Virus record (IMG/VR): IMGVR_UViG_2896607866_000013
Direction: 5' to 3' (one strand)
Origin: a virus
Lineage: Duplodnaviria; Heunggongvirae; Uroviricota; Caudoviricetes
Length of the DNA stretch: 46,788 bases
Both the position numbers and the translations under genes were made by a program. Shown here piece after piece: positions 1-42,325 of this stretch (its first letter is position 1; every line of letters begins with the position of its first letter). Under the pieces are notes generated by a model that did not search any database, had not been told where the DNA came from, and worked only from the letters and a program-made list of their open reading frames with translations.

Positions 1-585
1 TTACTCCCTGACAGGGTTCGTAGGCCACTCAATATCAGGTGCAGTTGATGTATCAACACGGTTCAGCAACACCCGATACTTTTTCCAGGCTTCCAGCAAT
101 GAGGTTTCTTCCTCCGTTGCAATTTCCAGATCTGCAGCATCCTGAAGCGGCGCAATATGCTCACTGGCTACCTGCATCAGGTTGTTTTTTGTTTCTTCCG
201 CCTCCCGGATCCGGAACAGTTTTTCTGCTTCCGTATCCTTCACCCAGGCTGTGCCGTTCCACTTCTGAAACTCCCCTTCCGGCGATAACCAGGTAACATT
301 TTCCGGTAACGGACCGAGTTCAGAAATAAATAACGCGTCGCCGGAAGCCACGTCATAAACCGTTTTACCCCGATGGTCTTCAAAGAGATGCCACGATGAC
401 TCATCACTGTTGAAAACAGCCACGAAGCCTGCCGGAATATCTAACGGTGCAATATCGGTACTGTTTGCAGGCAGACCTGTATGAGGCGGAATATATGCGT
501 CACCTTCACCAATAAATTCATTAGTTCCGGCCAGCAGATTATAAATTTTTATGGTCCGTGGTTGTTCACTCATTCTGAATGCCAT
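1..585 (-). CDS. tfa: Tail fiber assembly protein (lambda Tfa-like)
   Basis: 194-aa [23 protein letters not shown]...; closely matches recalled lambda Tfa; ATG at 585 overlaps stf stop (ATGA). Confidence 0.85.
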
Positions 586-3377
586 TATGCAAGCCTCACA
601 ATATAGTTAAATGCGATGTTTTTGACGGTGTTTTCCGCGTTACCAGCAGCGTTAACGGTGATGGTGTGTCCATGTGAACCAATCGCAACGGAGTGCGCAT
701 GAGCACCAATTGGAACAGAGTGCGCATGGTTACCTGTAGTGCTTGTGGCACCAGACCAGGTTCTGGAAGCGTTAAAGTTTACAGGAACACCATAAGTAAA
801 TTGAGAGCCCGTAAATCCATGGGCTGGCGCAGAGCCACCCAGTGTAAATGCTCCACTTGCTGTATAGAAATTACCGCTATCACTTCTGAAGTAACCGAGA
901 GTACCAGTAATTTCCATAGTGCCTCGGCTGTGGTTATGGTCACCAGTGGCATTTGAAGACTTAGTACCATAATCAAACGACGACGTGGTTTTCGTCCCCA
1001 AATCCGTACTGGATGCACTGGCGCTGTGGGTGTGCGATTTAATGCCGTCCTGTTCCTGAGATAATACGGCTCGACCACTGGCAGGTTTGCCCTTAATCGT
1101 CCAGCCACGCATATCAGGGATCACGCCTGACGGATAAGCAGCTGCAAGTTTCGGGTAAGCAGATTTGTCAAAAGTCTGCCCCTGCATCAGGGCATAACCA
1201 GACGGAACGGTATCTGATGGCCACGGGATTGGTGCGCCGACTGGGTAGCTTTCTGGTGGAAGATTTTTCGAGGTATAAACTTCTGCCCAGTCTTCCTCAA
1301 AACCATAACCGTCTCTTGAAGAACGGTAGAACAGACCACCATTTCTGTAATGCGCCTTCATCTGCAAGGTCCGGCAACTTCCGACTCCGGTATAGAAGTT
1401 AACCAGAATATAGCTGTCGCCAGAGCGGGTGACATTGTAAGCGCCTGATTCGGCATTCCAGGGAACGGCTCCATCCGAATCCGCATAAGCCCCCGTCGAA
1501 CGTCGGGCAAATGCACCAATATTTTCCGGCGTGAGGTTAATATCCGCCGAGCCATCAAACTTAACACCGTTAATTTTTGGGTCTGCCGCAAGTTTCGTCG
1601 CGGTATCGGCGTTCCCCTTCAGTGCCCCGGTGATCCCATCAGTAACAGACAACGGACCTGAAATAGTCCCTCCAGTTGTTGGCAGCGCTCCAATATCTGA
1701 TGGTGTAGGTTTCTGATGTGAGCTATACATCGTATAAACAACACCATCGGTAACGCTGGAAGGCTTACTCGCTGAATATGTTAGCGAGGTATAAATAGAA
1801 ACTGACGCATTTGTAGTACAATCCCAATGGATATTTACACTCGTCGCATAATTGCCAATCTCAACGTAAATATCATATATATCGCCGGATGTGTTGATCC
1901 AGGCGAAATTCGTTAATCCGACGGCTGTACGCTTCCACAAAGCTCCGGTAATCCCTTTGGAGTTTCCATTGCCTGCTCGTAGAACCAGTTCAGATATACC
2001 TGCCTGTTGAGGTGCCCCCACGTTAAATCCAGCGCCACCAATCAATGCGATGTAAACGATGGAACTCGCTTGTGGCATGGTAACCGTTGCCAGTTTGAAC
2101 CACCCTGCCCCGCCAGAGAAAGAGATCGTTACTGAATTTAAAGTGCCAATATCTTTCGGTGTTAATGTTATATCCGCAGTCAGTGCTTTCCCGTTAACTT
2201 TTCGGTTAGATGGTACCCTGCCATTCGCATTGTCATTCGCTGCTTTAACTGCCTTCGGTGTCGCGGCAAGCGTTTCAGATGTGCTGTTGGTTGCACTGCT
2301 GAGCTGTACTATCCCCTTTTTCGTCGTGCTCGCATCCTCAAGCGCCACGGCGGATGCAATATCCTCTGCCCGTTTTGCCGCTGTCTCGGCGCGCGTTGCC
2401 GCGGATTCCGCCGTACTTTTGCTCTGAGCTGCCGCCGTCGCACTGCCAGCTGCCTCTGTCGCCTTCGTGGATGCCGTCGTGGCGCTGCCCTTTGCTGCTG
2501 ACGCCTGTCTGGTCGCCTCATCTTTTGAAGCAGACGCAGATGATGCCGATGACGCCGCCGAACTGGCGGACGATGCGGCAGCCGTTTTTGAGGATTCTGC
2601 GCTGGTTTCCGAGGCTTTCGCGTTCGTTTCGGATGTCTTCGCTGCCTCTTTTGAGGCCGCCGCATCCCGTGCTGAAGTGGCTGCTTCTGACGCTTTCGTG
2701 GTCGCGGTGGATGCAGAAGTGGCTGCTGATTGTTGTGACGCTGCCGCATTCGTTTCTGACGTTTTCGCCGCACCGGCACTGGTAGCCGCCGCGCTTTTTG
2801 AGGACTCTGCAGCGGCAGCACTTTTTGATGCTTCAGTAGCCTTTGTTGATGCCGTTCCTGCGCTGGAAGACGCTGACTGAGCCGACGTCGCGGCCTGCCC
2901 GGCTGATGTGCTGGCTGCACGTGCTGAGCCTGCAGCATCAGTCGCATGGGTTGCCGCCTCACTGGCAGATATGCTGGCATCGCTGGCTGACTTCTTCGCG
3001 GCTGCCGTGTTCTGTGCCACCGCGGACGCGTTACGCGCCACCTCTTCCACCATCAGTTCAAAACGGCGCAGTGCCTCAGGACGGGCATCATCCTCCGTCA
3101 TGGCACCGAGAAAATCATTCAGCGTACCGGGTCGGGAATCTTCATACACGGTGATGGTCCCGGCATGTGAAGGCGGAAAACCTTCAACCAGCAGGGTGAC
3201 GCTGTACTGACCATGCTCAACATCCATGCTGTAACGTCCGGCTTCATCCGGATTTTCAGAGGCCACCGTGTTCACCACCACCGTGCTGCTGGTCCGTCTG
3301 GCTTTCAGTTGAATGGTGCAGTTCTCTACCGGTTTTCCTGTGCCGTCTTTCAGCACACCTGAAATCTTTACTGCCAT
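585..3377 (-). CDS. stf: Side tail fiber protein (lambda Stf-like)
   Basis: ORF 585-3383; ATG at 3377 gives [17 protein letters not shown]... like lambda Stf, preceded by GGGGTG SD; long Ala/Ser/Thr-rich low-complexity shaft; C-terminal HxH repeats. Confidence 0.85.
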
Positions 3378-27260: not shown

Positions 27261-27487
27261 GTCCATAAGAAAGCCCCTCCGGAGAGGGGCTGGAGAGTGG
27301 CGCTATGTGCCATTGCATGGTGCCGGGTGCCTCCCGGTGAATTCAGTACCAGCACCTGAATCCGCGATTATCCCATATACCTACTCGCTGATTGCCCCTC
27401 CGCACAGGGGGATTCACCATGCCAGTTTCTTTTAACAAACTCCCCGCAAAACAGACAACTGTCAACCGTCTGAATTGTGAGACATTT

Positions 27488-27512
27488 AAAAAAAGGCCCG
27501 CAAAAGCGAGCC
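27488..27512 (-). terminator. Intrinsic terminator downstream of tRNA cluster
   Basis: GGCUCGC-UUUU-GCGGGCC hairpin followed by UUUUUUU on - strand. Confidence 0.5.
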
Positions 27513-27526
27513 GGGAAAAATAAGTC

Positions 27527-27603
27527 TGGCGCGTTGTACTGGATTCGAACCAGTGACCGATTGCTTAGAAGGCAATTGCTCTGTCCGGCTGAGCTAACAA
27601 CGC
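27527..27603 (-). tRNA. argO: tRNA-Arg (anticodon UCU)
   Basis: 77 nt; 7-bp acceptor stem GCGTTGT/ACAACGC, anticodon loop CTTCTAA, TTCGAAT T-loop, CCA end. Confidence 0.85.
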
Positions 27604-27616
27604 AGGGTACAGATAA

Positions 27617-27693
27617 TGGACCGCCATCGAGGACTCGAACCCCGCGCAACCAGCTTCGAAGGCTGGCGCTCTATCCCGATGAGCTAATGGCGG
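27617..27693 (-). tRNA. argN: tRNA-Arg (anticodon UCG)
   Basis: 77 nt; acceptor CCGCCAT/ATGGCGG, anticodon loop CTTCGAA, TTCGAGT T-loop, CCA end. Confidence 0.75.
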
Positions 27694-27702
27694 TATGTGA
27701 TA

Positions 27703-27778
27703 TGGTGGCCCTTGCTGGATTTGAACCAGCGACCTGGCGATTATGAGTCGCTCGCTCTCACCACTGAGCTAAAGGGCC
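27703..27778 (-). tRNA. ileZ: tRNA with CAU anticodon (Ile2/ileX-like, or Met)
   Basis: 76 nt GGCCCTTTAGCTCAGTGG...ACTCATAATCG...GGGCCACCA; close to recalled E. coli ileX; ileZ-argN-argO order as in Stx-type phages. Confidence 0.8.
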
Positions 27779-35552: not shown

Positions 35553-36421
35553 TTACGCCCCCTTACCTCTGAAGGGTTCAGCGACAAATTTATGAGGCAG
35601 GCCAGTGCCGAAGCATCATTAATATAGTCATACAAGCTAACAGCCAGCGGAGATTCGGCTTTTGCCAACATAGGATAAAGCTGCTGCAGCCAGACCTGAT
35701 GAATTGATGAAATGTAGGAATAGAGAACGCTGGCGTTATGTGCAACATCGCTCAGTACAGAGGGATTTGAAAGCTGTTTCTCCATCTGGTTAAAGGCATT
35801 GATGTATGCCTCTTTGAACTGGGCAGCACGTTTACCCGTGAAGCCCATGGCAAGAAACGCAAAACCGTCGCGGGTGATTTGGTAACAAGGGAGTTTGCGG
35901 CCTGATGCGTCGGTGTATTCACTTAACACAAAATTGTGTTCAGTAAATTCAGCGGAACATTCGAGGTTTCTAATTCTATCTAAAACCCGCTCATGCCGTT
36001 TAGTAAAGTAATTAGCTACTGCAAGAGATGTGGTGACAACGCGACCATTGATAATCGTGATTTCAGGGTGAGATTGGGTTGGGAGAGTAGTCATGGTGAC
36101 AGCCCCTATGTTGAATTCAATGAACTCACCACCAAGGCTTTCCACGACCATATAGGTGGTGAGACGTACAGGGGTGGAAATACCGGTCAACATAGAACCC
36201 GGCCCAACCGAAGTTGGCCCTGCACGCCCCACCATAATTTGGGCGTAACGATGCTCATGACACGAAAAAACCGCATGAGCGCGGTTGTGCTCTATATTGA
36301 ATTTCGGGTTTCCACGCCCGGCACCCGCTTTATAAGGTGCCTGAACAGTGTAACGTCCCGGAATGGCAGAATCAATGTGCTGGTGGCGATTGGTAAACAG
36401 TTTGAAAATATTCCGGATCAT
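35549..36421 (-). CDS. Rha-family phage regulatory protein (copy 1 of tandem pair)
   Basis: 290 aa; C-terminal half has Rha signature VTTSLAVANYF.KRH..VL..IR.LE...GRKLPCYQITRDGFAFLAMGFTGKRAA.FKEAYINAFNQMEK. Confidence 0.65.
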   Translation of the reverse strand: MIRNIFKLFTNRHQHIDSAIPGRYTVQAPYKAGAGRGNPKFNIEHNRAHAVFSCHEHRYAQIMVGRAGPTSVGPGSMLTGISTPVRLTTYMVVESLGGEFIEFNIGAVTMTTLPTQSHPEITIINGRVVTTSLAVANYFTKRHERVLDRIRNLECSAEFTEHNFVLSEYTDASGRKLPCYQITRDGFAFLAMGFTGKRAAQFKEAYINAFNQMEKQLSNPSVLSDVAHNASVLYSYISSIHQVWLQQLYPMLAKAESPLAVSLYDYINDASALACLINLSLNPSEVRGRK

Positions 36422-37569
36422 TTACGCCCCCTTACCTCTGAAGGATTCAGCGACAAATTTATGAGGCAGGCCAGCGCCGAAGCATCATTAATATAGTCAT
36501 ACAAGCTAACAGCCAGCGGAGATTCGGCTTTTGCCAACATGGGATAAAGCTGCTGCAGCCAGACCTTGTGGATTACCGACAGGTGGGAGTAAAGCACGCT
36601 GGCGTTATCTGCGGCATCGCTCAGCGTGGATGGCTTTGAAAGCAGTTTTTCCATCTGGTTAAAGGCATTTATGTATGCCTCTTTGAACCGGGCAGCACGT
36701 TTACCAGTGAAGCCCATAGCAAGGAACGCGAAGCCATCGCGGGTGATTTGATAGCAAGGTAGTTTGCGGCCTGTGCAATCGGTGTAATCACTCACCGAAA
36801 AATTGCGGGCAGTGAATGATGCGGAGCATTCAAGCGTGCGGATCTTTTTCAGTACATCGTCATGACGTTTGGAGAAGAAGTTGGCAACAGCTAGGGATGA
36901 AGTAACAGCCTGACCATCAACGATGGCAATTTCAGGTTGAGTGAGGGTTGGGAGAGTAGTCATAGTGACAGCCCCGGTAGTCAGTTTTTTAGAAAACTCA
37001 CCACATGGGACGCCAATCACAGAGGTGGTGAGACGTACAGGGTTGGCGTTACCGGAGACTACCGAACCCGGCCCGACCGAAGTCGGCCCTGTACGCCCCA
37101 CCATAATTTGGGCGTAGCAATGCTCATGACACGAAAAAACCGCATGAGCGCGGTTATGCTCAGTAATCAATTTCAGGACGCCAATCCCGGCACCCGCTTT
37201 ATAAGGTGCCTGAACAGTGTAACGTCCCGGAATGGCAGAATCAATGTGCTGGTGGTCCTTCACACTCAACAAAATCACGCCTGAATTTCCACAAAGGACT
37301 AAAGCACTCATGCTGGTAGTCTTTGCGAAGATAGATAACGCGCTGTGTTTCTGGCTCCCAACGAATAACATGGACATAAAGCCCTCTTCCGTCACGAAAC
37401 CAGCGGTTAAGTTCCTGCACAACTCGCCCCCCACAGTCAGGTAAAGTTCTCTGTGGTTACTTACAGCCAGGTGATCTGGTAATCTGCATTCATGCCGTAA
37501 CAACAGGTGTTCAGCGACACTGACCACCAGCTGTTGCGACAAACGGTTATTTGCCGTTAAACTGTTCAT
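36418..37569 (-). CDS. Rha-family phage regulatory protein (copy 2, with unique ~93-aa N-terminal extension)
   Basis: 383 aa; C-terminal 290 aa paralogous to copy 1 (~870-bp tandem DNA repeat); ATG immediately after the CII-like stop. Confidence 0.6.
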   Translation of the reverse strand: MNSLTANNRLSQQLVVSVAEHLLLRHECRLPDHLAVSNHRELYLTVGGELCRNLTAGFVTEEGFMSMLFVGSQKHSALSIFAKTTSMSALVLCGNSGVILLSVKDHQHIDSAIPGRYTVQAPYKAGAGIGVLKLITEHNRAHAVFSCHEHCYAQIMVGRTGPTSVGPGSVVSGNANPVRLTTSVIGVPCGEFSKKLTTGAVTMTTLPTLTQPEIAIVDGQAVTSSLAVANFFSKRHDDVLKKIRTLECSASFTARNFSVSDYTDCTGRKLPCYQITRDGFAFLAMGFTGKRAARFKEAYINAFNQMEKLLSKPSTLSDAADNASVLYSHLSVIHKVWLQQLYPMLAKAESPLAVSLYDYINDASALACLINLSLNPSEVRGRK

Positions 37570-38117
37570 GCGTTAGTTTCTCCACAGACACAAAACGCCA
37601 CGACGCCCGGAGCTGCACACTCGCGGGCGTCACTCTTTTCTGGAGCGCAGAAGATTTTGTAGACCAGTGCTGCATGCTCCTGGAGCTTCGAAATTGACAG
37701 ATACAACTCATCATTAATTGCTGTCTGCTCGTGTGGCTCCACGACCCCATCTTCGATTGCCGAACGAATCTGCTTTGAGTAATTCCCGATCTGTTCGATG
37801 ACTTCCAGCAGGCGCTGGTTTATATCGGCGTTCTCTACTTCCTCAATTTCAGGAAGCGATACGAACACCCCACCAGCAGACTGTGCGACAGCATCCGCAA
37901 TGTAGTGAGTGCCAGCAGCACGCTGTAAAATCATTGCCCATCCCAGCGGGAAAATCTGATCGCCATCTGCACGAAGGCGGTTGAATAAAGCGTTCTCTGT
38001 TACATCCAGCCACTCAGCAGCTTCAGCGTAACCCCCCGGCAACGCCGCGATAGTTTTTCTGACAGCTTTCACGTACCACTCAGGCTGTTTTTCCACTTTC
38101 CAGTGATGATTACCCAC
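37566..38117 (-). CDS. CII-like regulatory protein (tentative)
   Basis: 183 aa directly downstream of cro; weak resemblance to recalled phage 186 CII-type proteins; family call is inference. Confidence 0.35.
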   Translation of the reverse strand: MGNHHWKVEKQPEWYVKAVRKTIAALPGGYAEAAEWLDVTENALFNRLRADGDQIFPLGWAMILQRAAGTHYIADAVAQSAGGVFVSLPEIEEVENADINQRLLEVIEQIGNYSKQIRSAIEDGVVEPHEQTAINDELYLSISKLQEHAALVYKIFCAPEKSDARECAAPGVVAFCVCGETNA

Positions 38118-38370
38118 GGCTTACCTCCTGTTCCTGTGGTTTAAACCCATTCTGGTTTTGGCTAGATTGAAAACGTGCCGGATAAAGAATCTGCATTTCG
38201 CTGATTTCACCCTTAAAAAAATTGGCCAGACGTTCTGCAAGATCGATAGATGGAATTTGTTCCAGTCTTTCAATACGACTCAGCGTCGCTGGATTGACCT
38301 GAACGCCAGCAGCAACATGCTGCAAAGTAAATCCGTGCGCCTTACGCACATTCCGTAATAGTGATTGCAT
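38110..38370 (-). CDS. cro: Cro-like HTH repressor
   Basis: 86 aa, HTH motif TLQHVAAGVQVNPATLSRIE; GGAGG SD; divergent from cI across the operator region. Confidence 0.8.
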   Translation of the reverse strand: MQSLLRNVRKAHGFTLQHVAAGVQVNPATLSRIERLEQIPSIDLAERLANFFKGEISEMQILYPARFQSSQNQNGFKPQEQEVSRG

Positions 38371-38467
38371 ATAACCTCCACATATTGCGTGATGGGCATA
38401 TTATTTCACGCAAATATTTTGCGCAAGTTGATTTGCTTAACGCGCAATAAAGAAATGTAATAAACGC
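38371..38467. promoter_or_regulatory. OR operator / pR-pRM region
   Basis: Perfect TTGC-N7-GCAA site at 38433-38447 plus TTGCG/CGCAA half-sites; pR TTGCGC-17-TAATAT on - strand; pRM TTGCTT-17-TGTAAT on + strand ending ~6 nt before cI ATG. Confidence 0.65.
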
Positions 38468-39160
38468 ATGAACATAGGAAACCGAGTCAGACAACTTCGC
38501 CAGGCGAAGAACATGAAAATCGCCGATCTCGCTGAAGCAATAGGAGTGGATGCGGCGAATATCTCACGCCTGGAAACAGGTAAGCAGAAACAATTCACTG
38601 AACAAGCCCTGAGTAATATTGCCAGGAGCTTAGGTGTTGATATTGCTGATCTCTTTACCTCAGACTTCAAAAGTAATACTGTATGTAAAAACAGTATTAG
38701 TGAGGATGTTGCGCAGGTGAAGGATGTATTCCGTATTGAAATGCTGGATGTCAGTGCCAGTGCGGGAAATGGCCTTATCCAGGGCGGTGATGTCATTGAT
38801 GTGATTCATGCCATTGAATACAGAACTGATAATGCTGTATCGATGTTTGGCGGACGGCCAGCAAATCACATTAAAGTTATCAACGTTCGTGGGGACAGTA
38901 TGTGTCCAACCATTGAGCCAGGAGATCTCATCTTCGTTGATGTCAGTATCAATCAGTTTGATGGAGATGGTATCTATGTATTTGGTTTTGATGATAAAAT
39001 TTATGTCAAACGACTGCAAATGATACCTGACAAACTACTGGTGATTTCTGATAACCAGATTTATCGTGAATGGGGAATTACCAGCGAAAATGAACACCGG
39101 TTTATGGTCTTTGGAAAGGTCTTAATCAGCCAGTCACAAACCCTTAAGCGACACAATTAA
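38468..39160 (+). CDS. cI: CI-type prophage repressor (HTH_XRE + S24 LexA-like peptidase domain)
   Basis: 230 aa; N-terminal HTH; C-terminal RGDSMCPTIEPGD (Ser) and KRL (Lys) autocleavage dyad. Confidence 0.85.
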   Translation: MNIGNRVRQLRQAKNMKIADLAEAIGVDAANISRLETGKQKQFTEQALSNIARSLGVDIADLFTSDFKSNTVCKNSISEDVAQVKDVFRIEMLDVSASAGNGLIQGGDVIDVIHAIEYRTDNAVSMFGGRPANHIKVINVRGDSMCPTIEPGDLIFVDVSINQFDGDGIYVFGFDDKIYVKRLQMIPDKLLVISDNQIYREWGITSENEHRFMVFGKVLISQSQTLKRHN

Positions 39161-39180
39161 CCCTTACCTCCTCATCAATT

Positions 39181-39205
39181 AGCCACCCGAAGGTGGCTTT
39201 TCATT
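39181..39205 (+). terminator. Intrinsic terminator after cI
   Basis: AGCCACC-CGAA-GGTGGCT followed by TTTCATT. Confidence 0.6.
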
Positions 39206-39209
39206 ACCC

Positions 39210-39270
39210 ATCAAATTGCATATCTCGCAACAAAAATACTTGCATAATGCGCAACTTCATTTTATCTTTC
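39210..39270 (+). promoter_or_regulatory. OL operators and putative pL
   Basis: Two perfect TTGC-N7-GCAA sites (39216-39230, 39240-39254), same consensus as OR; TTGCAT-17-TATCTT promoter-like elements facing right. Confidence 0.5.
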
Positions 39271-39862
39271 TTTCCAGACCAACAAACAAGGTACTAACAA
39301 AATTTGGTTGTAACACGGCGTATGGCACATGCGTCGTTAGCGGTCTGGGGACGTTAAAGGGGACAATCCACTCCTTGCTCGGGCAAACAAACCAGGTAGC
39401 CGGAATGTGCAAGTCAATGATGATGCTGATAAGACGCCTAACCAGCGTGGCGATTCGGTTTGACGCCTGGGAAGAGACCAGGGTGCAACGATGAGGGCAT
39501 TTATGGAACCGCGACAAAGTATGGTGCCGTAACTGGCTAAGTGCTCTCAGCGTTGTGGTAATCCGCGAAATGGCGCGGCGGTAAGTATGGCGGGGTTATT
39601 CCTTCCCCGTTGAGGACACCGGGTTGTCAGGTTGACCATACGCTTAAGTGACAAGCCCACCACAACAGCCACTGCTTTGGCGGTACCAGTTTGTACACTT
39701 GCTTCCGGCTGGTACCGCTCTTTTTACAAAACAGAGAAGAGCATCACCGGACGACGGGCTCATAACCCAATCCACCCGGGCGGCTGCCACCGCAGGTGTT
39801 CTTCTCTGTTTTGTGGAGAAACCAACCGACCTTGCAGGGTCGATATGATGAGGAGCAGCAAA
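39271..39862 (+). other. Long structured 5' leader of the early-left operon (no N-like ORF)
   Basis: ~590 nt, GC-rich; terminator-like hairpin 39681-39726; imperfect 16-bp stem-loop 39726-39814; GAGGAG SD at 39851. Confidence 0.4.
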
Positions 39863-40225
39863 ATGGCTAGCGAACGCAGTACTGATGTGCAGGCATTTAT
39901 CGGGGAGCTGGACGGCGGCGTATTTGAAACCAAAATCGGCGCTGTTCTCAGTGAAGTCGCTTCAGGTGTGATGAACACGAAAACCAAAGGGAAGGTCTCG
40001 CTCAACCTGGAAATCGAACCGTTTGATGAGAACCGTGTGAAAATAAAACACAAACTCTCATATGTTCGTCCGACTAACCGCGGGAAAATTTCCGAAGAAG
40101 ACACCACCGAAACGCCGATGTATGTCAATCGCGGTGGTCGCCTGACTATTCTGCAGGAAGACCAGGGACAATTACTGACTCTTGCCGGTGAACCTGACGG
40201 AAAACTCCGCGCAGCAGGTCATTAA
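39863..40225 (+). CDS. Hypothetical protein (YfdP-like by position)
   Basis: 120 aa from ATG 39863 with GAGGAG SD; immediately upstream of the YfdQ-like gene. Confidence 0.55.
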   Translation: MASERSTDVQAFIGELDGGVFETKIGAVLSEVASGVMNTKTKGKVSLNLEIEPFDENRVKIKHKLSYVRPTNRGKISEEDTTETPMYVNRGGRLTILQEDQGQLLTLAGEPDGKLRAAGH

Positions 40226-41168: not shown

Positions 41169-41471
41169 ATGAGCAGAAAAACCCAACGTTACTCTAAAGA
41201 GTTCAAAGCCGAAGCTGTCAGAACGGTTCTTGAAAATCAACTTTCGATCAGTGAAGGCGCTTCCCGATTATCTCTTCCTGAAGGCACTTTAGGACAATGG
41301 GTTACCGCCGCCAGAAAAGGGCTCGGTACTCCTGGTTCCCGCACGGTGGCTGAACTGGAATCTGAAATTCTGCAACTGCGTAAGGCGTTAAATGAAGCTC
41401 GCCTTGAGCGAGATATATTAAAAAAAGCAACAGCGTATTTTGCACAGGAGTCGCTGAAAAATACGCGTTAA
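41169..41471 (+). CDS. IS600-like transposase OrfA
   Basis: 100 aa HTH/leucine-zipper OrfA typical of IS3 family. Confidence 0.85.
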   Translation: MSRKTQRYSKEFKAEAVRTVLENQLSISEGASRLSLPEGTLGQWVTAARKGLGTPGSRTVAELESEILQLRKALNEARLERDILKKATAYFAQESLKNTR

Positions 41472-41506
41472 TCGAACAATGGCGACAACAATTTCCCATT
41501 GAAGCG

Positions 41507-42325
41507 ATGTGTCAGGTATTTGGTGTATCCAGGAGCGGTTATTACAACTGGGTACAGCATGAACCCTCAGACAGAAAACAAAGTGATGAGCGGCTAAAAC
41601 TGGAGATTAAGGTGGCACATATCCGCACTCGCGAAACATATGGAACCCGGCGGCTCCAGACGGAGCTGGCAGAGAATGGCATCATCGTTGGTCGTGACCG
41701 ACTGGCACGTCTTCGTAAGGAGCTAAGGCTACGCTGTAAGCAGAAACGCAAGTTCAGAGCGACTACGAACCCGAACCACAATCTGCCAGTTGCGCCAAAT
41801 CTGCTGAACCAGACGTTCGCTCCTACAGCACCAAATCAGGTCTGGGTGGCGGACCTGACGTATGTTGCCACACAGGAGGGATGGTTGTACCTCGCTGGCA
41901 TCAAAGATGTTTATACGTGCGAAATTGTCGGCTACGCCATGGGAGAGCGCATGACAAAAGAGCTGACAGGTAAAGCCCTGTTTATGGCGCTCAGGAGCCA
42001 GCGCCCACCTGCCGGGCTAATCCACCACTCTGATCGAGGTTCACAGTACTGCGCATACGATTACCGGGTCATACAGGAGCAGTTTGGTCTGAAAACATCA
42101 ATGTCGCGTAAAGGTAACTGTTACGACAACGCTCCGATGGAAAGCTTCTGGGGAACGCTGAAAAATGAGAGCCTGAGCCACTATCGTTTTAATAACCGGG
42201 ATGAAGCCATCTCAGTAATACGGGAATACATTGAGATTTTCTACAATCGTCAGCGTCGTCACTCTCGTCTGGGGAATATCTCCCCGGCAGCCTTCAGGGA
42301 AAAATATCATCAGATGGCTGCTTAA
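41507..42325 (+). CDS. IS600-like transposase OrfB (DDE)
   Basis: 272 aa with integrase-core motifs (HSDRGSQY...). Confidence 0.85.
   Translation: MCQVFGVSRSGYYNWVQHEPSDRKQSDERLKLEIKVAHIRTRETYGTRRLQTELAENGIIVGRDRLARLRKELRLRCKQKRKFRATTNPNHNLPVAPNLLNQTFAPTAPNQVWVADLTYVATQEGWLYLAGIKDVYTCEIVGYAMGERMTKELTGKALFMALRSQRPPAGLIHHSDRGSQYCAYDYRVIQEQFGLKTSMSRKGNCYDNAPMESFWGTLKNESLSHYRFNNRDEAISVIREYIEIFYNRQRRHSRLGNISPAAFREKYHQMAA

Follow-up and report, generated by a model that had tools for sequence, protein, structure and literature searches.

In the N leader of phage lambda, nutL lies between pL and N, and the leader carries an RNase III-sensitive hairpin. The put RNA of HK022, which is about 70 nt long and forms two stem-loops after both pL and pR, acts in cis on the zinc-binding domain of the RNA polymerase (RNAP) β′ subunit and suppresses terminators without protein factors. 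The thrS operator of E. coli is a mimic of a tRNA anticodon arm in an mRNA leader, and T4 tRNA-cluster species 1 and 2, GOLLD and ROOL are stable RNAs co-encoded with phage tRNAs. Lambdoid prophages with yfdP/Q/R as early-left genes are very common and are without an N gene. The passage of early terminators in this N-less class is a question raised by phage specialists, and Casjens and colleagues have speculated on put-like RNA antitermination for it (PMC12315714).

We analysed a leader of this class in a 46,788-nt stretch of viral DNA from IMG/VR, here called the window. The best reading of the ~650-base stretch that follows the repressor gene is that it is the untranslated leader with which the early-left (pL) transcription unit begins (Table 1). 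Every feature named in an earlier sequence-only reading of this DNA was found again, at most 2 nt from where that reading had placed it. The two operators do share the consensus of OR as it had claimed, because TTGC-N7-GCAA is also present at OR (38433-38447), and a pattern search of the window returned six matches against 1.35 expected (six or more in 0/100 shuffles). The rightward promoter-like element is readable as pL, but its -35 and -10 hexamers agree with the consensus at only 7 of 12 positions, a weak match, and a consensus promoter scan did not call it, which is why we refer to it as an inferred pL. The same arrangement is found in an SfII-like locus (L008), and transcription would be expected to start near 39276. 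The terminator of the cI-like repressor gene may be leaky, in which case pRM transcripts would enter the leader in lysogens.

Table 1. Features of the early-left leader and of its pR-side counterpart (window coordinates).
Feature	Position	Strand	Basis or description
cI-like repressor terminator	39181-39198	+	terminator scan: 7-bp stem, 5 GC pairs, tail TTTTCATT
Two OL operators, TTGC-N7-GCAA	39216-39230 and 39240-39254	.	pattern search
Inferred pL	39241-39269	+	direct reading: -35 TTGCAT 39241-39246, 17-nt spacer, -10 TATCTT 39264-39269
Module A, ~170-nt pseudoknotted RNA	39315-39486	+	covariation and covariance model R1
Module D2, long hairpin CAACGAUGAGGGCAUU...AAGUGCUCUCAGCGUUG	39486-39555	+	predicted fold -24.6 kcal/mol, z = -1.9
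Module B, multi-branched hairpin closed by GUUGUGGU/ACCACAAC	39552-39666	+	predicted fold -44.4 kcal/mol, z = -1.4
sRNA-17 equivalent (B + T)	39551-39724	+	primers of PMC7719688 mapped on the window
Intrinsic terminator T	39679-39725	+	stem GGCGGUACCAG/CUGGUACCGC(U), 19-nt loop, then CUCUUUUU
Module C, three-way junction	39726-39814	+	20-bp basal stem; arm 1 39747-39779; variable arm 2 39780-39793
Conserved linear motif UGUGGAGAAACCAAC, then hairpin CGACCUUGCAGGGUCG	39812-39826, then 39827-39842	+	
SD GAGGAG 39850-39855 and yfdP ATG 39863	39850-39865	+	sequence
pR-side counterpart	37572-37631	-	hairpin GACGCCCG-CGAGUGUGCAGCUC-CGGGCGUC 37631-37602, then UUUUGUGUCUGUGGAGAAACUAAC, ATG 37569

The interval between the repressor gene and yfdP (39161-39862) holds mechanical open reading frames (ORFs) of 92, 86, 66, 48 and 41 aa, and small protein genes, either an N analogue or YmfH-like proteins, have been annotated or could be proposed here. 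ORFs are annotated in the region as YmfH in the e14 element of K-12 and as hypothetical proteins in PhiR47_1 and STEC1575, two of the interval ORFs match PHROG families, and the frame 5′ of yfdP is open back to 39632. However, the two PHROG matches lie on opposite strands of one conserved stretch, none of the ORFs has a Pfam match, and a terminator and covarying helices lie inside them. The length of the element modulo 3 differs among homologues, no frame is open in all 21 of them, and a ymfH-like ORF over B′-T-C is annotated as frameshifted in the genome of another strain. We consider protein genes in the interval extremely improbable, and these results suggest that the K-12 y-gene ymfH is non-coding. 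The ORF list likewise contains no Arg-rich N-like peptide, and a small Arg-rich N gene as the first gene after pL was not found in the ORF list or by Pfam and PHROG searches. The earlier statements that the interval has no plausible ORF and no N-like gene both hold.

Folds, covariation and the ORF tests agree with the description of the interval as a long structured non-coding leader. The sequence-only reading, however, had seen a single leader with two hairpins; both hairpins are there, but the leader is a mosaic of at least five RNA modules that are conserved separately from each other across loci. The Rfam scan and the covariation analysis with homologues that it proposed were run: Rfam 15, searched both with gathering thresholds and with E ≤ 1, gave no match within 39161-39862, and modules A and C covary. 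A literature search with exact RNA sequences of the leader also returned no matches. ORF-free leaders with D2-type and B-type hairpins, T and C are found in prophages of Enterobacter, Leclercia, Atlantibacter, Scandinavium and Pseudocitrobacter, and Stx2a phages have the same long ORF-free layout. Of 5426 complete E. coli genomes, 4861 have matches to pieces of the leader, and carriers of the yfdP/Q/R-class leader include Stx2a- and Stx2c-converting phages.

The terminator-like hairpin that had been placed at 39681-39726 is real. It consists of a 13-bp hairpin (39679-39718) and a U-tract (39721-39725), and its predicted free energy is -20.8 kcal/mol (z = -4.8 against shuffles). The stem covaries across genera (GGCGGCGUC/GACGCCGC, GGCGGCAUC/GAUGCCGC, GGUGGCGACCUGAA/UUCAGUAGCCACC) and the U-tract is retained. 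In a close relative, a 3′ RACE end falls at the T U-tract when the published primers are mapped on the window (PMC7719688), and T thus combines a G+C-rich stem, a U-tract and an RNA 3′ end in a relative, as expected of a Rho-independent terminator. A terminator scan missed T because of its unusually long loop, which is 19 nt in the window and 12-40 nt in homologues; such an atypically large loop may make T weak or regulated. The T hairpin and the long stem-loop after it are conserved upstream of yfdP homologues in many genera at 70-90% nucleotide identity, as compared with 57-76% identity between the YfdP proteins.

Part of the leader that the sequence-only reading described is already in print as a small RNA. 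Sun et al. (2020) reported sRNA-17 of E. coli K1 RS218 as a 193-nt RNA by RACE and Northern blotting (PMC7719688). We placed it on the window through the published primers rather than the RS218 genome record, and by this mapping its 5′ end lies at CGTTGTGG, the D2/B junction, its 3′ end primer lies at 39693-39724, and the RNA spans CGUUGUGG to the T U-tract. The reverse transcription primers and the Northern oligonucleotide are antisense to the pL-sense strand, and sRNA-17 is therefore pL-sense. Exact matches in the window cover the terminator half and the flanking primers, whereas the primers inside B and the Northern oligonucleotide are unmatched. The reason is that the B variant of the window differs, and exact identity is thus limited to T and its flanks. 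Two other loci (L046 and L059) match sRNA-17 over its full length.

Modules D2 and B connect the leader to tRNA genes. Many loci have the D2 stem, variable in its interior, after module A, and compensatory changes in it were judged by eye alone. In at least 25 loci the 3′ end of D2 adjoins the 5′ end of tRNA-Arg(UCU), and these tail-to-head junctions between A-D2 and a tRNA suggest maturation by tRNA-processing enzymes. Module B occurs in several sequence variants, including B′ and B″, and the window copy shares 93% identity with the spacer between ydfC and dicB in Qin-like prophages. In two Phytobacter loci (L021 and L026) a real tRNA occupies the B slot, directly before T. ARAGORN found only three tRNAs in the window (27527-27778), and neither it nor the Rfam tRNA model found a cloverleaf in the leader. 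A D2 segment, UGGUGCCGU, was considered as an anti-terminator for T, and the idea was dropped on inspection because the segment is conserved in tRNA-linked copies that are without T.

We propose that pL first yields a processed non-coding RNA cassette closed by T, and that T, by closing the cassette, gates the yfdPQR-int operon; we hold the chances for and against this model to be about equal. Transcription would enter from pL and, in lysogens, probably also by read-through of a cI terminator that may be leaky, producing three independently folding domains, A, D2 and B. The polymerase would then reach T, where the majority of transcripts would end. The terminated RNA would be cut at the D2/B junction, the position of a tRNA 5′ end (RNase P site) in related phages. 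This cut would leave an A-D2 fragment and a stable RNA made of B+T, which would be the published sRNA-17. Since most transcripts would end at T, T would insulate yfdP-yfdQ-yfdR...int against basal transcription. Polymerases that pass T, presumably after induction, would alone reach module C, the UGUGGAGAAAC motif with its hairpin, and the ribosome-binding site (RBS). There, by our guess, C would probably set the stability or translation of the first gene. The modules would probably decide whether the early-left genes are expressed.

Several observations are consistent with this gating model. Modules A, T and C are conserved and covary, the folds of T and C are far more stable than those of shuffles, and the leader is linked to tRNAs in three ways, with A co-oriented with tRNAs, D2 abutting the tRNA-Arg 5′ end and a tRNA in the B slot. 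In the close relative, which carries another B variant than the window and is the source of the transcript data, there is pL-sense transcription with a 5′ end at D2/B and a 3′ end at T, and yfdP and yfdR are derepressed when B is disrupted (PMC7719688). We infer that the D2/B junction is a cut rather than a promoter and that T acts as an insulator.

The published view of sRNA-17 is different: stand-alone trans-acting small RNAs would be made from their own promoter, would target host genes and would be unrelated to the pL operon. The Northern band is discrete at 193 nt and the RNA level is higher in stationary phase, ArcA-P shifts a fragment upstream of sRNA-17 in an EMSA, and 48 genes are changed in the mutant, which has virulence phenotypes (PMC7719688). 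The resemblance of module A to portable cargo beside tRNAs would also suit this view. Yet by far the largest changes in RNA-seq of the mutant are in the cis-adjacent genes, with yfdP up 2^6.6 (~95-fold) and yfdR up 2^4.1 (PMC7719688), although the rise of yfdP may be an artefact, caused by polarity of the chloramphenicol cassette. The ArcA-regulated promoter that the authors propose falls inside A-D2 (PMC7719688), and the promoter fragment is exactly A plus D2, of which A is a covarying RNA structure. A scan called no sigma-70-like promoter in A-D2, and the 5′ end of the RNA sits at the tRNA +1 position of related loci. We regard stand-alone trans-acting RNAs as unlikely.

Module A is a conserved and covarying RNA structure. 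It is built from a hairpin (P1), a helix (P2) around a variable hairpin, a junction, UAGCCGGAAUGUGCAAG, that is invariant, a helix of 4 bp (P4) whose 7-nt loop reads YUCACCA, and a hairpin (P5) with the loop GAAGAG; the P4 loop pairs with a downstream GGUG to form a pseudoknot (AACC:GGUU in the window). Across the alignment 95.1% of cells are paired and 12 pairs have changed on both sides, and the covariation score is 0.295 compared with 0.130 in shuffles (0/500) and at most 0.08 in slid controls. Covariance model R1, built for module A, gave a single match in the window (39315-39486; 138 bits, E = 1e-41), with no copy on the pR side. Module A has no Rfam match, and an exact 19-mer of it is present in more than 120 IMG/VR contigs. 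Phage P1 carries module A downstream of a tRNA inside the ban operon, in the trnI-ban gap, and the module is also found in tRNA-Arg islands between head genes; in every case it is co-oriented with the adjacent tRNA. Most leaders with T-C are without it.

The sequence-only reading had raised RNA-based antitermination in the leader, with HK022 as the parallel, and such a mechanism is possible. Nascent module A would bind RNAP so that neither T nor later terminators would stop it, processively and without protein factors. The premise of an N-less lambdoid phage with terminators stands, because N is absent and intrinsic termination sites occur in the left operon (T) as well as in the right one (the isrK terminators, 37155-37138 and 36286-36269). 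Of the structured elements, module A comes first behind pL, and specialists have independently suggested a put-type mechanism for this phage class (PMC12315714). In SfII-like phages with the same operators, a conserved element E holds the slot of A, and E lies at +8 to +15 of at least eight different pL promoter types, as does HK022 putL.

A kinship with put itself was not supported by covariance models. Models R1 (module A) and R2 (element E), run with filters off on HK022 putL and putR, gave no match, and module A is not a put homologue by this search, which consisted of the A and E models on the two put sequences (sequences from NC_002166; numbering checked against PMC9378689). HK639, HK75 and HK022 are not among the phage matches of element E. 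A resemblance to put noticed by eye, ACGGCG..CAUGCGUCG..AGCGG, was unsupported by the covariance models. Module A, which has a pseudoknot and five helices in ~170 nt, is also unlike a two-stem V of 70 nt, and neither A nor E has a pR-side copy; in each of 46 loci R2 found a single copy of E, always on the pL side. Two loci (L021 and L023) carry both E and A. The places of A beside tRNAs, in the P1 ban operon and between head genes do not call for antitermination, and its absence from most T-C leaders also counts against such a role. Finally, pRM read-through transcripts would be antiterminated as well, and T would then be defeated as an insulator. For these reasons we consider put-like antitermination by module A rather unlikely.

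Directly after T lies module C, the long stem-loop that had been proposed at 39726-39814 and is confirmed there. Its 89 nt fold at -43.5 kcal/mol (z = -7.1), and an equal fold was reached in 0/200 shuffles. Over 30 pairs, 89.7% of cells are paired and 12 pairs have changed on both sides (0/500 shuffles). Arm 1 ends in CGGGCUCAUAACCC (39755-39768), and this tip is identical to the anticodon stem-loop of the E. coli initiator tRNA at 14 of 14 positions, comprising three G-C pairs and the loop CUCAUAA; the likeness is confined to the anticodon arm. The mimic lies ~95 nt 5′ of the start codon and is missing in some homologues (e14, L032 and Providencia). The CUCAU loop could pair with the yfdP start (AUGAG) in some homologues but not in the window or in others, and such pairing was dropped as an explanation. 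The gene that follows encodes a YfdP protein matching phrog_204 (E = 1.2e-49), a PHROG of unknown function.

Between module C and yfdP, the 15-nt motif UGUGGAGAAACYAAC is followed by a hairpin whose loop has UGCA(G) and whose stem varies among homologues. The motif occurs once on each side of the window's immunity region, the pR-side copy (37586-37572) lying in the 3′ end of a cII-like (Phage_CP76) ORF. It is also present in many viral contigs, and at many IMG/VR loci two divergent copies lie 2.2-2.9 kb apart. Of 85 unique motif contexts, 68 have a GCAG-loop hairpin between -60 and +45 nt (background 6.4%); these contexts are related sequences and not independent events.

This layout is reminiscent of nutL and nutR, and a protein-dependent system could be imagined in which UUUUGUGU.UGUGGAGAAACUAAC together with the GCAG-loop hairpin recruits an unrecognised phage or host factor for RNAP or translation. 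The presence of the motif on both sides of the immunity region and in many viral contigs, and of a covarying-stem hairpin in 80% of unique contexts, would fit such a system. On the other hand, the pL-side signal lies downstream of T, which makes a rescue of T impossible, and the order of motif and hairpin is opposite on the two sides. The pR copy lies inside coding sequence and overlaps an RBS, with the next ATG 10 nt further on, and the motif may therefore be a mere shared SD cassette. The relatedness of the counted contexts weakens the enrichment, an N-like ORF is absent, and a search for the boxA consensus UGCUCUUUAACAA with up to three mismatches found none in 39161-39862; its seven matches in the window all lie outside the leader and are below the chance expectation. 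Two candidates for boxA/boxC that had looked suggestive were set aside after this negative search: UGCUCUUU...UGUGUGG in the 3′ strand of module C of most homologues, which is base-paired, and CGCUCUUUUUACAA at T in the window. We judge a nut-like system to be very unlikely.

We also suggest a broader reading, tentative and on balance doubtful, in which the leader of N-less enterobacterial prophages, including those of Stx2a phages, is an operon of undescribed functional RNAs. If this is true, module A, shared with P1 and matured with phage tRNAs, would reprogram RNAP as a put analogue with a new fold, or would alternatively be a stable trans-acting phage RNA. Module C would show an exact initiator-tRNA anticodon arm beside the first RBS and engage the 30S P site, IF3 or MetRS, or would alternatively be a decoy for a tRNA-fMet-cleaving toxin; either way it would control early gene expression. 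A and C are apparently two undescribed covarying RNA families, with E a third in relatives. The system is partly new and is testable, and its sRNA-17 part is already in print. Our analysis turns the leader into defined parts, with a proposed gate terminator that has in vivo support in a relative, RNA families and a link to phage tRNAs. It also draws a link to the unannotated trnI-ban gap of phage P1 and reinterprets the virulence-associated sRNA-17 as a putative processed piece of a pL leader.

Compared with known systems, the leader shares with HK022 put a cis-encoded structured RNA just after an early promoter of an N-less lambdoid phage, with terminators further downstream. It differs in that covariance models detect no match in sequence or structure, the size and architecture are other, and A is on the left operon only. 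Its likeness to the lambda nutL-N leader lies in a long untranslated pL leader with a large hairpin beside the RBS, module C having the position of the RNase III hairpin, and, less clearly, in a linear motif with a hairpin repeated on both early operons, although this motif is another one than that of lambda and stands in opposite order to the hairpin on the two sides. Unlike lambda, the window is without an N gene, boxA or a boxB-type GNRA-like loop, it has an intrinsic terminator before the first gene, and its hairpin is a three-way junction with a tRNA-like arm. A-D2 resembles the T4 tRNA-cluster species 1 and 2, GOLLD and ROOL in being co-oriented with and directly beside phage tRNA genes, whereas there is no sequence relation (no Rfam match) and A is much smaller than GOLLD or ROOL. 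With sRNA-17 the window shares the same locus in an mEp460-like prophage, a B-type hairpin plus T, identity of T and its flanks, and absence from Rfam, but it carries another B variant. The sRNA-17 paper describes a free-standing, ArcA-controlled, trans-acting RNA, with no pL/OL context, T gate, module C or tRNA linkage, and it used module A as a promoter fragment, unrecognised as an RNA module. The mimic in module C stands on a three-way junction ~95 nt before the start codon, is not in all homologues and is known from sequence, and in these respects it differs from the thrS operator of E. coli; the two are alike in placing near an RBS a leader hairpin that copies a tRNA anticodon stem-loop, here that of the initiator tRNA.

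The window prophage is lambdoid, of the CPS-53/mEp460/SfII type. Its nearest phage records, PhiR47_1 (97% across the entire leader), mEp460, cdtI, 2H10, Ayreon and the Stx2a- and Stx2c-converting phages, share a layout in which the repressor gene is followed by a gap of ~700 nt and then yfdP, and none of them carries an annotated N. The sequence-only reading had described this gap as holding TTGC-N7-GCAA operators, a cI terminator and a terminator hairpin followed by a long stem-loop, with no plausible open reading frame. We found the operators at 39216 and 39240, with one more at OR (6 matches vs 1.35 expected), and both folded structures, the terminator hairpin at −20.8 kcal/mol (z = −4.8) and the stem-loop at −43.5 kcal/mol (z = −7.1). 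No Pfam family matched any ORF of the gap. Across 21 diverse homologs the length of the element takes all three values mod 3 (0, 1 and 2), and none of the reading frames is open in every one. Two gap ORFs match PHROGs, but from opposite strands of one stretch, and an equivalent ORF in another genome (strain 2000-3039) is annotated as frameshifted. From the operator, terminator, ORF and fold checks we conclude that the earlier description was correct.

Features of the leader, its surroundings and selected comparison loci
Feature	Sequence	Coordinates	Strand	Remark
IS009 RNA	window	44-242		225 bits; left end
STnc100 sRNA with tRNA cluster	window	27261-27778		adjoins phage tRNA-Ile2(CAU)/Arg/Arg
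isrK + C4 pairs	window	36152-36340; 37021-37209	-	pR operon
24-nt element and GCAG-loop hairpin	window	37572-37631	-	pR side
cII-like Phage_CP76 gene	window	37566-38117	-	beyond cro-like gene
Rha/antirepressor gene	window			beyond cro-like gene, with cII-like gene
cro-like gene	window	38110-38370	-	
cI-like repressor gene	window	38468-39160	+	faces cro-like gene
cI terminator	window	39181-39198		
Module A	window	39315-39486		covarying pseudoknotted RNA
Module D2	window	39486-39555		long hairpin
Module B	window	39552-39666		branched hairpin
T	window	39679-39725		intrinsic terminator
Module C	window	39726-39814		three-way junction, 20-bp basal stem
yfdP	window	39863		right of cI
yfdQ (DUF2303)	window			after yfdP
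IS600-like IS3-family element	window	41169-42325		splits pL operon between yfdQ and yfdR
yfdR	window			after insertion
Element E	L005 (K-12 e14)	2060-2143		
Element E	L008 (SfII-like)	1761-1843		

BLAST searches of phages and 5,426 E. coli genomes showed that the 702-nt query is a mosaic rather than a single unit, with pieces that occur separately. Module A contains an invariant 19-mer present in >120 IMG/VR contigs, and when 34 non-redundant copies were aligned, support emerged for two hairpins (P1 and P5) and two helices (P2 and P4, the latter of 4 bp and bearing a conserved 7-nt loop), with a pseudoknot between the P4 loop and a downstream GGUG that in the window is AACC:GGUU, a compensatory double change. 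In this alignment 95.1% of cells were paired and 12 pairs had changed on both sides, giving a covariation score of 0.295 vs 0.130 when shuffled (0/500) and <=0.08 with the partners slid; module A had no match in Rfam. Module A and the neighbouring tRNA are always co-oriented (128 loci), and A either precedes tRNA-Arg(UCU) or immediately follows tRNA-Ile2(CAU). The latter arrangement is the 286-nt unannotated trnI-ban gap of phage P1 itself (L248 800-978, equivalent to AF234172 71023-71201; 133.8 bits), where a detailed P1 record annotates no feature at the position of A, and the module also occurs in P7, D6, RCS47 and SJ46.

Elements of the D2, B, T and C types lie upstream of yfdP homologs in Mangrovibacter, Enterobacter, Leclercia, Kosakonia, Phytobacter and others, and leaders beyond E. 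coli are 70-90% identical in nucleotides while the proteins are just 57-76% identical. The promoter-proximal element in most of these leaders is E instead of A. E is a ~65-nt covarying three-way junction (ACAGGCAGGACGCCCACGAAGUAGCC, a hairpin, GGAUGAUUCG) with 96% of cells paired and a covariation score of 0.346 vs 0.101 (0/500), and it begins at +8 to +15 of at least 8 different promoter/operator types. It is present in SfII, SfIV, SfV, ST64B, phiNP, mEp237, ZF40 and also e14, as a single copy per locus (~45 loci beyond those tabulated). E was not found in the window; SfII-like phages that share the window operators carry it in A's place.

In tRNA-linked copies the 3′ end of D2 abuts the tRNA +1 position. 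Module B, closed by GUUGUGGU/ACCACAAC, exists in several sequence variants, and that of the window is 93% identical to positions 3001-3124 of comparison locus L004, in the ydfC-dicB interval of Qin-like prophages, which is the DicF sRNA precursor region. A real tRNA fills the B slot in Phytobacter prophages, immediately before T. T itself sits after B, and its stem covaries between genera with the U-tract retained. D2, B and C (39486-39814) share at their bases a common set of complementary words (CAAC / GUUGUGG / CCACAAC / ACA(A/C)AAC / GUUUUGUGG), and therefore alternative long-range pairings between modules are possible; D2 also looks like a paralog of C's basal stem (..AGAGCAUY / RGUGCUCU..GUUGUGG). 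The T loop of several comparison loci (L009, L019, L024, L028, L031-L033) holds a conserved insert, GAGGAUGAAGAUAAUGUUCUG, in which AUG UUC UG comes after an SD-like sequence. In Mangrovibacter the insert reads as a tiny ORF with its stop at the terminator stem's 3′ strand, and it may allow ribosome-dependent control of termination. Annotated ymfH (K-12 e14, L005 2863-3174; comparison locus L247 3361-3672) exactly overlies a hairpin of the B variant B′ together with T and C; strain 2000-3039 has this ORF annotated with a frameshift, PHROG families fall on both strands of the stretch, and ymfH is probably a mis-annotated non-coding region.

A 193-nt RNA, sRNA-17, has been reported from an mEp460-like prophage of E. 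coli K1 by RACE and Northern blots (Sun et al. 2020, PMC7719688). Mapping the primers of that study onto oriented loci placed the 5′ end of sRNA-17 at CGUUGUGG, where D2 meets B and 4 nt from the tRNA +1 position of tRNA-linked copies, and its other end at T's U-tract. sRNA-17 is pL-sense, since the oligonucleotides used for RT and for Northern detection are complementary to the pL-sense strand. The promoter fragment used is exactly A plus D2, and the deletion takes out the interior of B only. By far the largest changes in the deletion mutant were increases in yfdP (2^6.6-fold) and yfdR (2^4.1-fold) (PMC7719688), a rise that could be a cassette artefact. We read sRNA-17 as a processed leader fragment ending at T, and these data indicate that T functions in vivo and that the downstream operon is under the leader's control.

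Over 30 pairs, module C had 89.7% of cells paired and 12 pairs changed on both sides, with 0/500 shuffles matching. The tip of its arm 1, CGGGCUCAUAACCC, is identical at 14/14 positions to the initiator tRNA anticodon stem-loop from E. coli; most homologs retain it, the exceptions being e14, one Scandinavium locus and Providencia. Downstream of C come a conserved UGUGGAGAAACYAAC, a small UGCAG-loop hairpin with covarying stems and the yfdP RBS. On the pR side, the 3′ end of the cII-like ORF holds a GCAG-loop hairpin and a 24-nt element that also occurs on the pL side (UUUUGUGUCUGUGGAGAAACUAAC), 10 nt ahead of the following ATG, and at comparison locus L120 this hairpin has one compensatory change despite its coding position. 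The presence of motif and hairpin on both the left and right early operons raises a nut-like function as an alternative; however, the left copy is downstream of T, the right copy overlaps a coding region and RBS, and boxA is absent. The pR operon also contains two tandem pairs of isrK and C4 antisense RNA (Rfam, 59-82 bits), each with its own terminator. One pair lies within an ORF that elsewhere carries the annotation of one 383-aa Rha/antirepressor, which suggests that a P1-immI-like ant control module has been duplicated.

In the best-supported model, to which we give about an even chance, transcription from pL would first yield a non-coding RNA cassette of A, D2 and B, ended by T. T would shield yfdP...int against basal transcription and against read-through from pRM, processing would turn the terminated RNA into stable pieces, and C, borne on read-through transcripts, would probably adjust how stable the first gene's message is or how well it is translated. 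The sequence-only reading had raised the possibility of antitermination by RNA like the cis-acting put sites of HK022, a guess shared by Casjens and colleagues for this phage class (PMC12315714) and consistent with the absence of N and the terminators on both arms. We consider this unlikely, as A and E are not put homologs (a covariance model detected no put homology for E), both lack a pR-side copy, A also occurs where antitermination is not needed, and many T-C leaders are without A.

Lambdoid early operons are already known to contain terminators and structured leaders, and B with T has been published as sRNA-17, under a different interpretation. A, C and E appear to be undescribed as covarying RNA families; none is in Rfam, and a literature search for their sequences gave no matches. 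Two unusual features are the association of A with tRNAs and the arm of C that resembles initiator tRNA, and the leader finding has real follow-up value.
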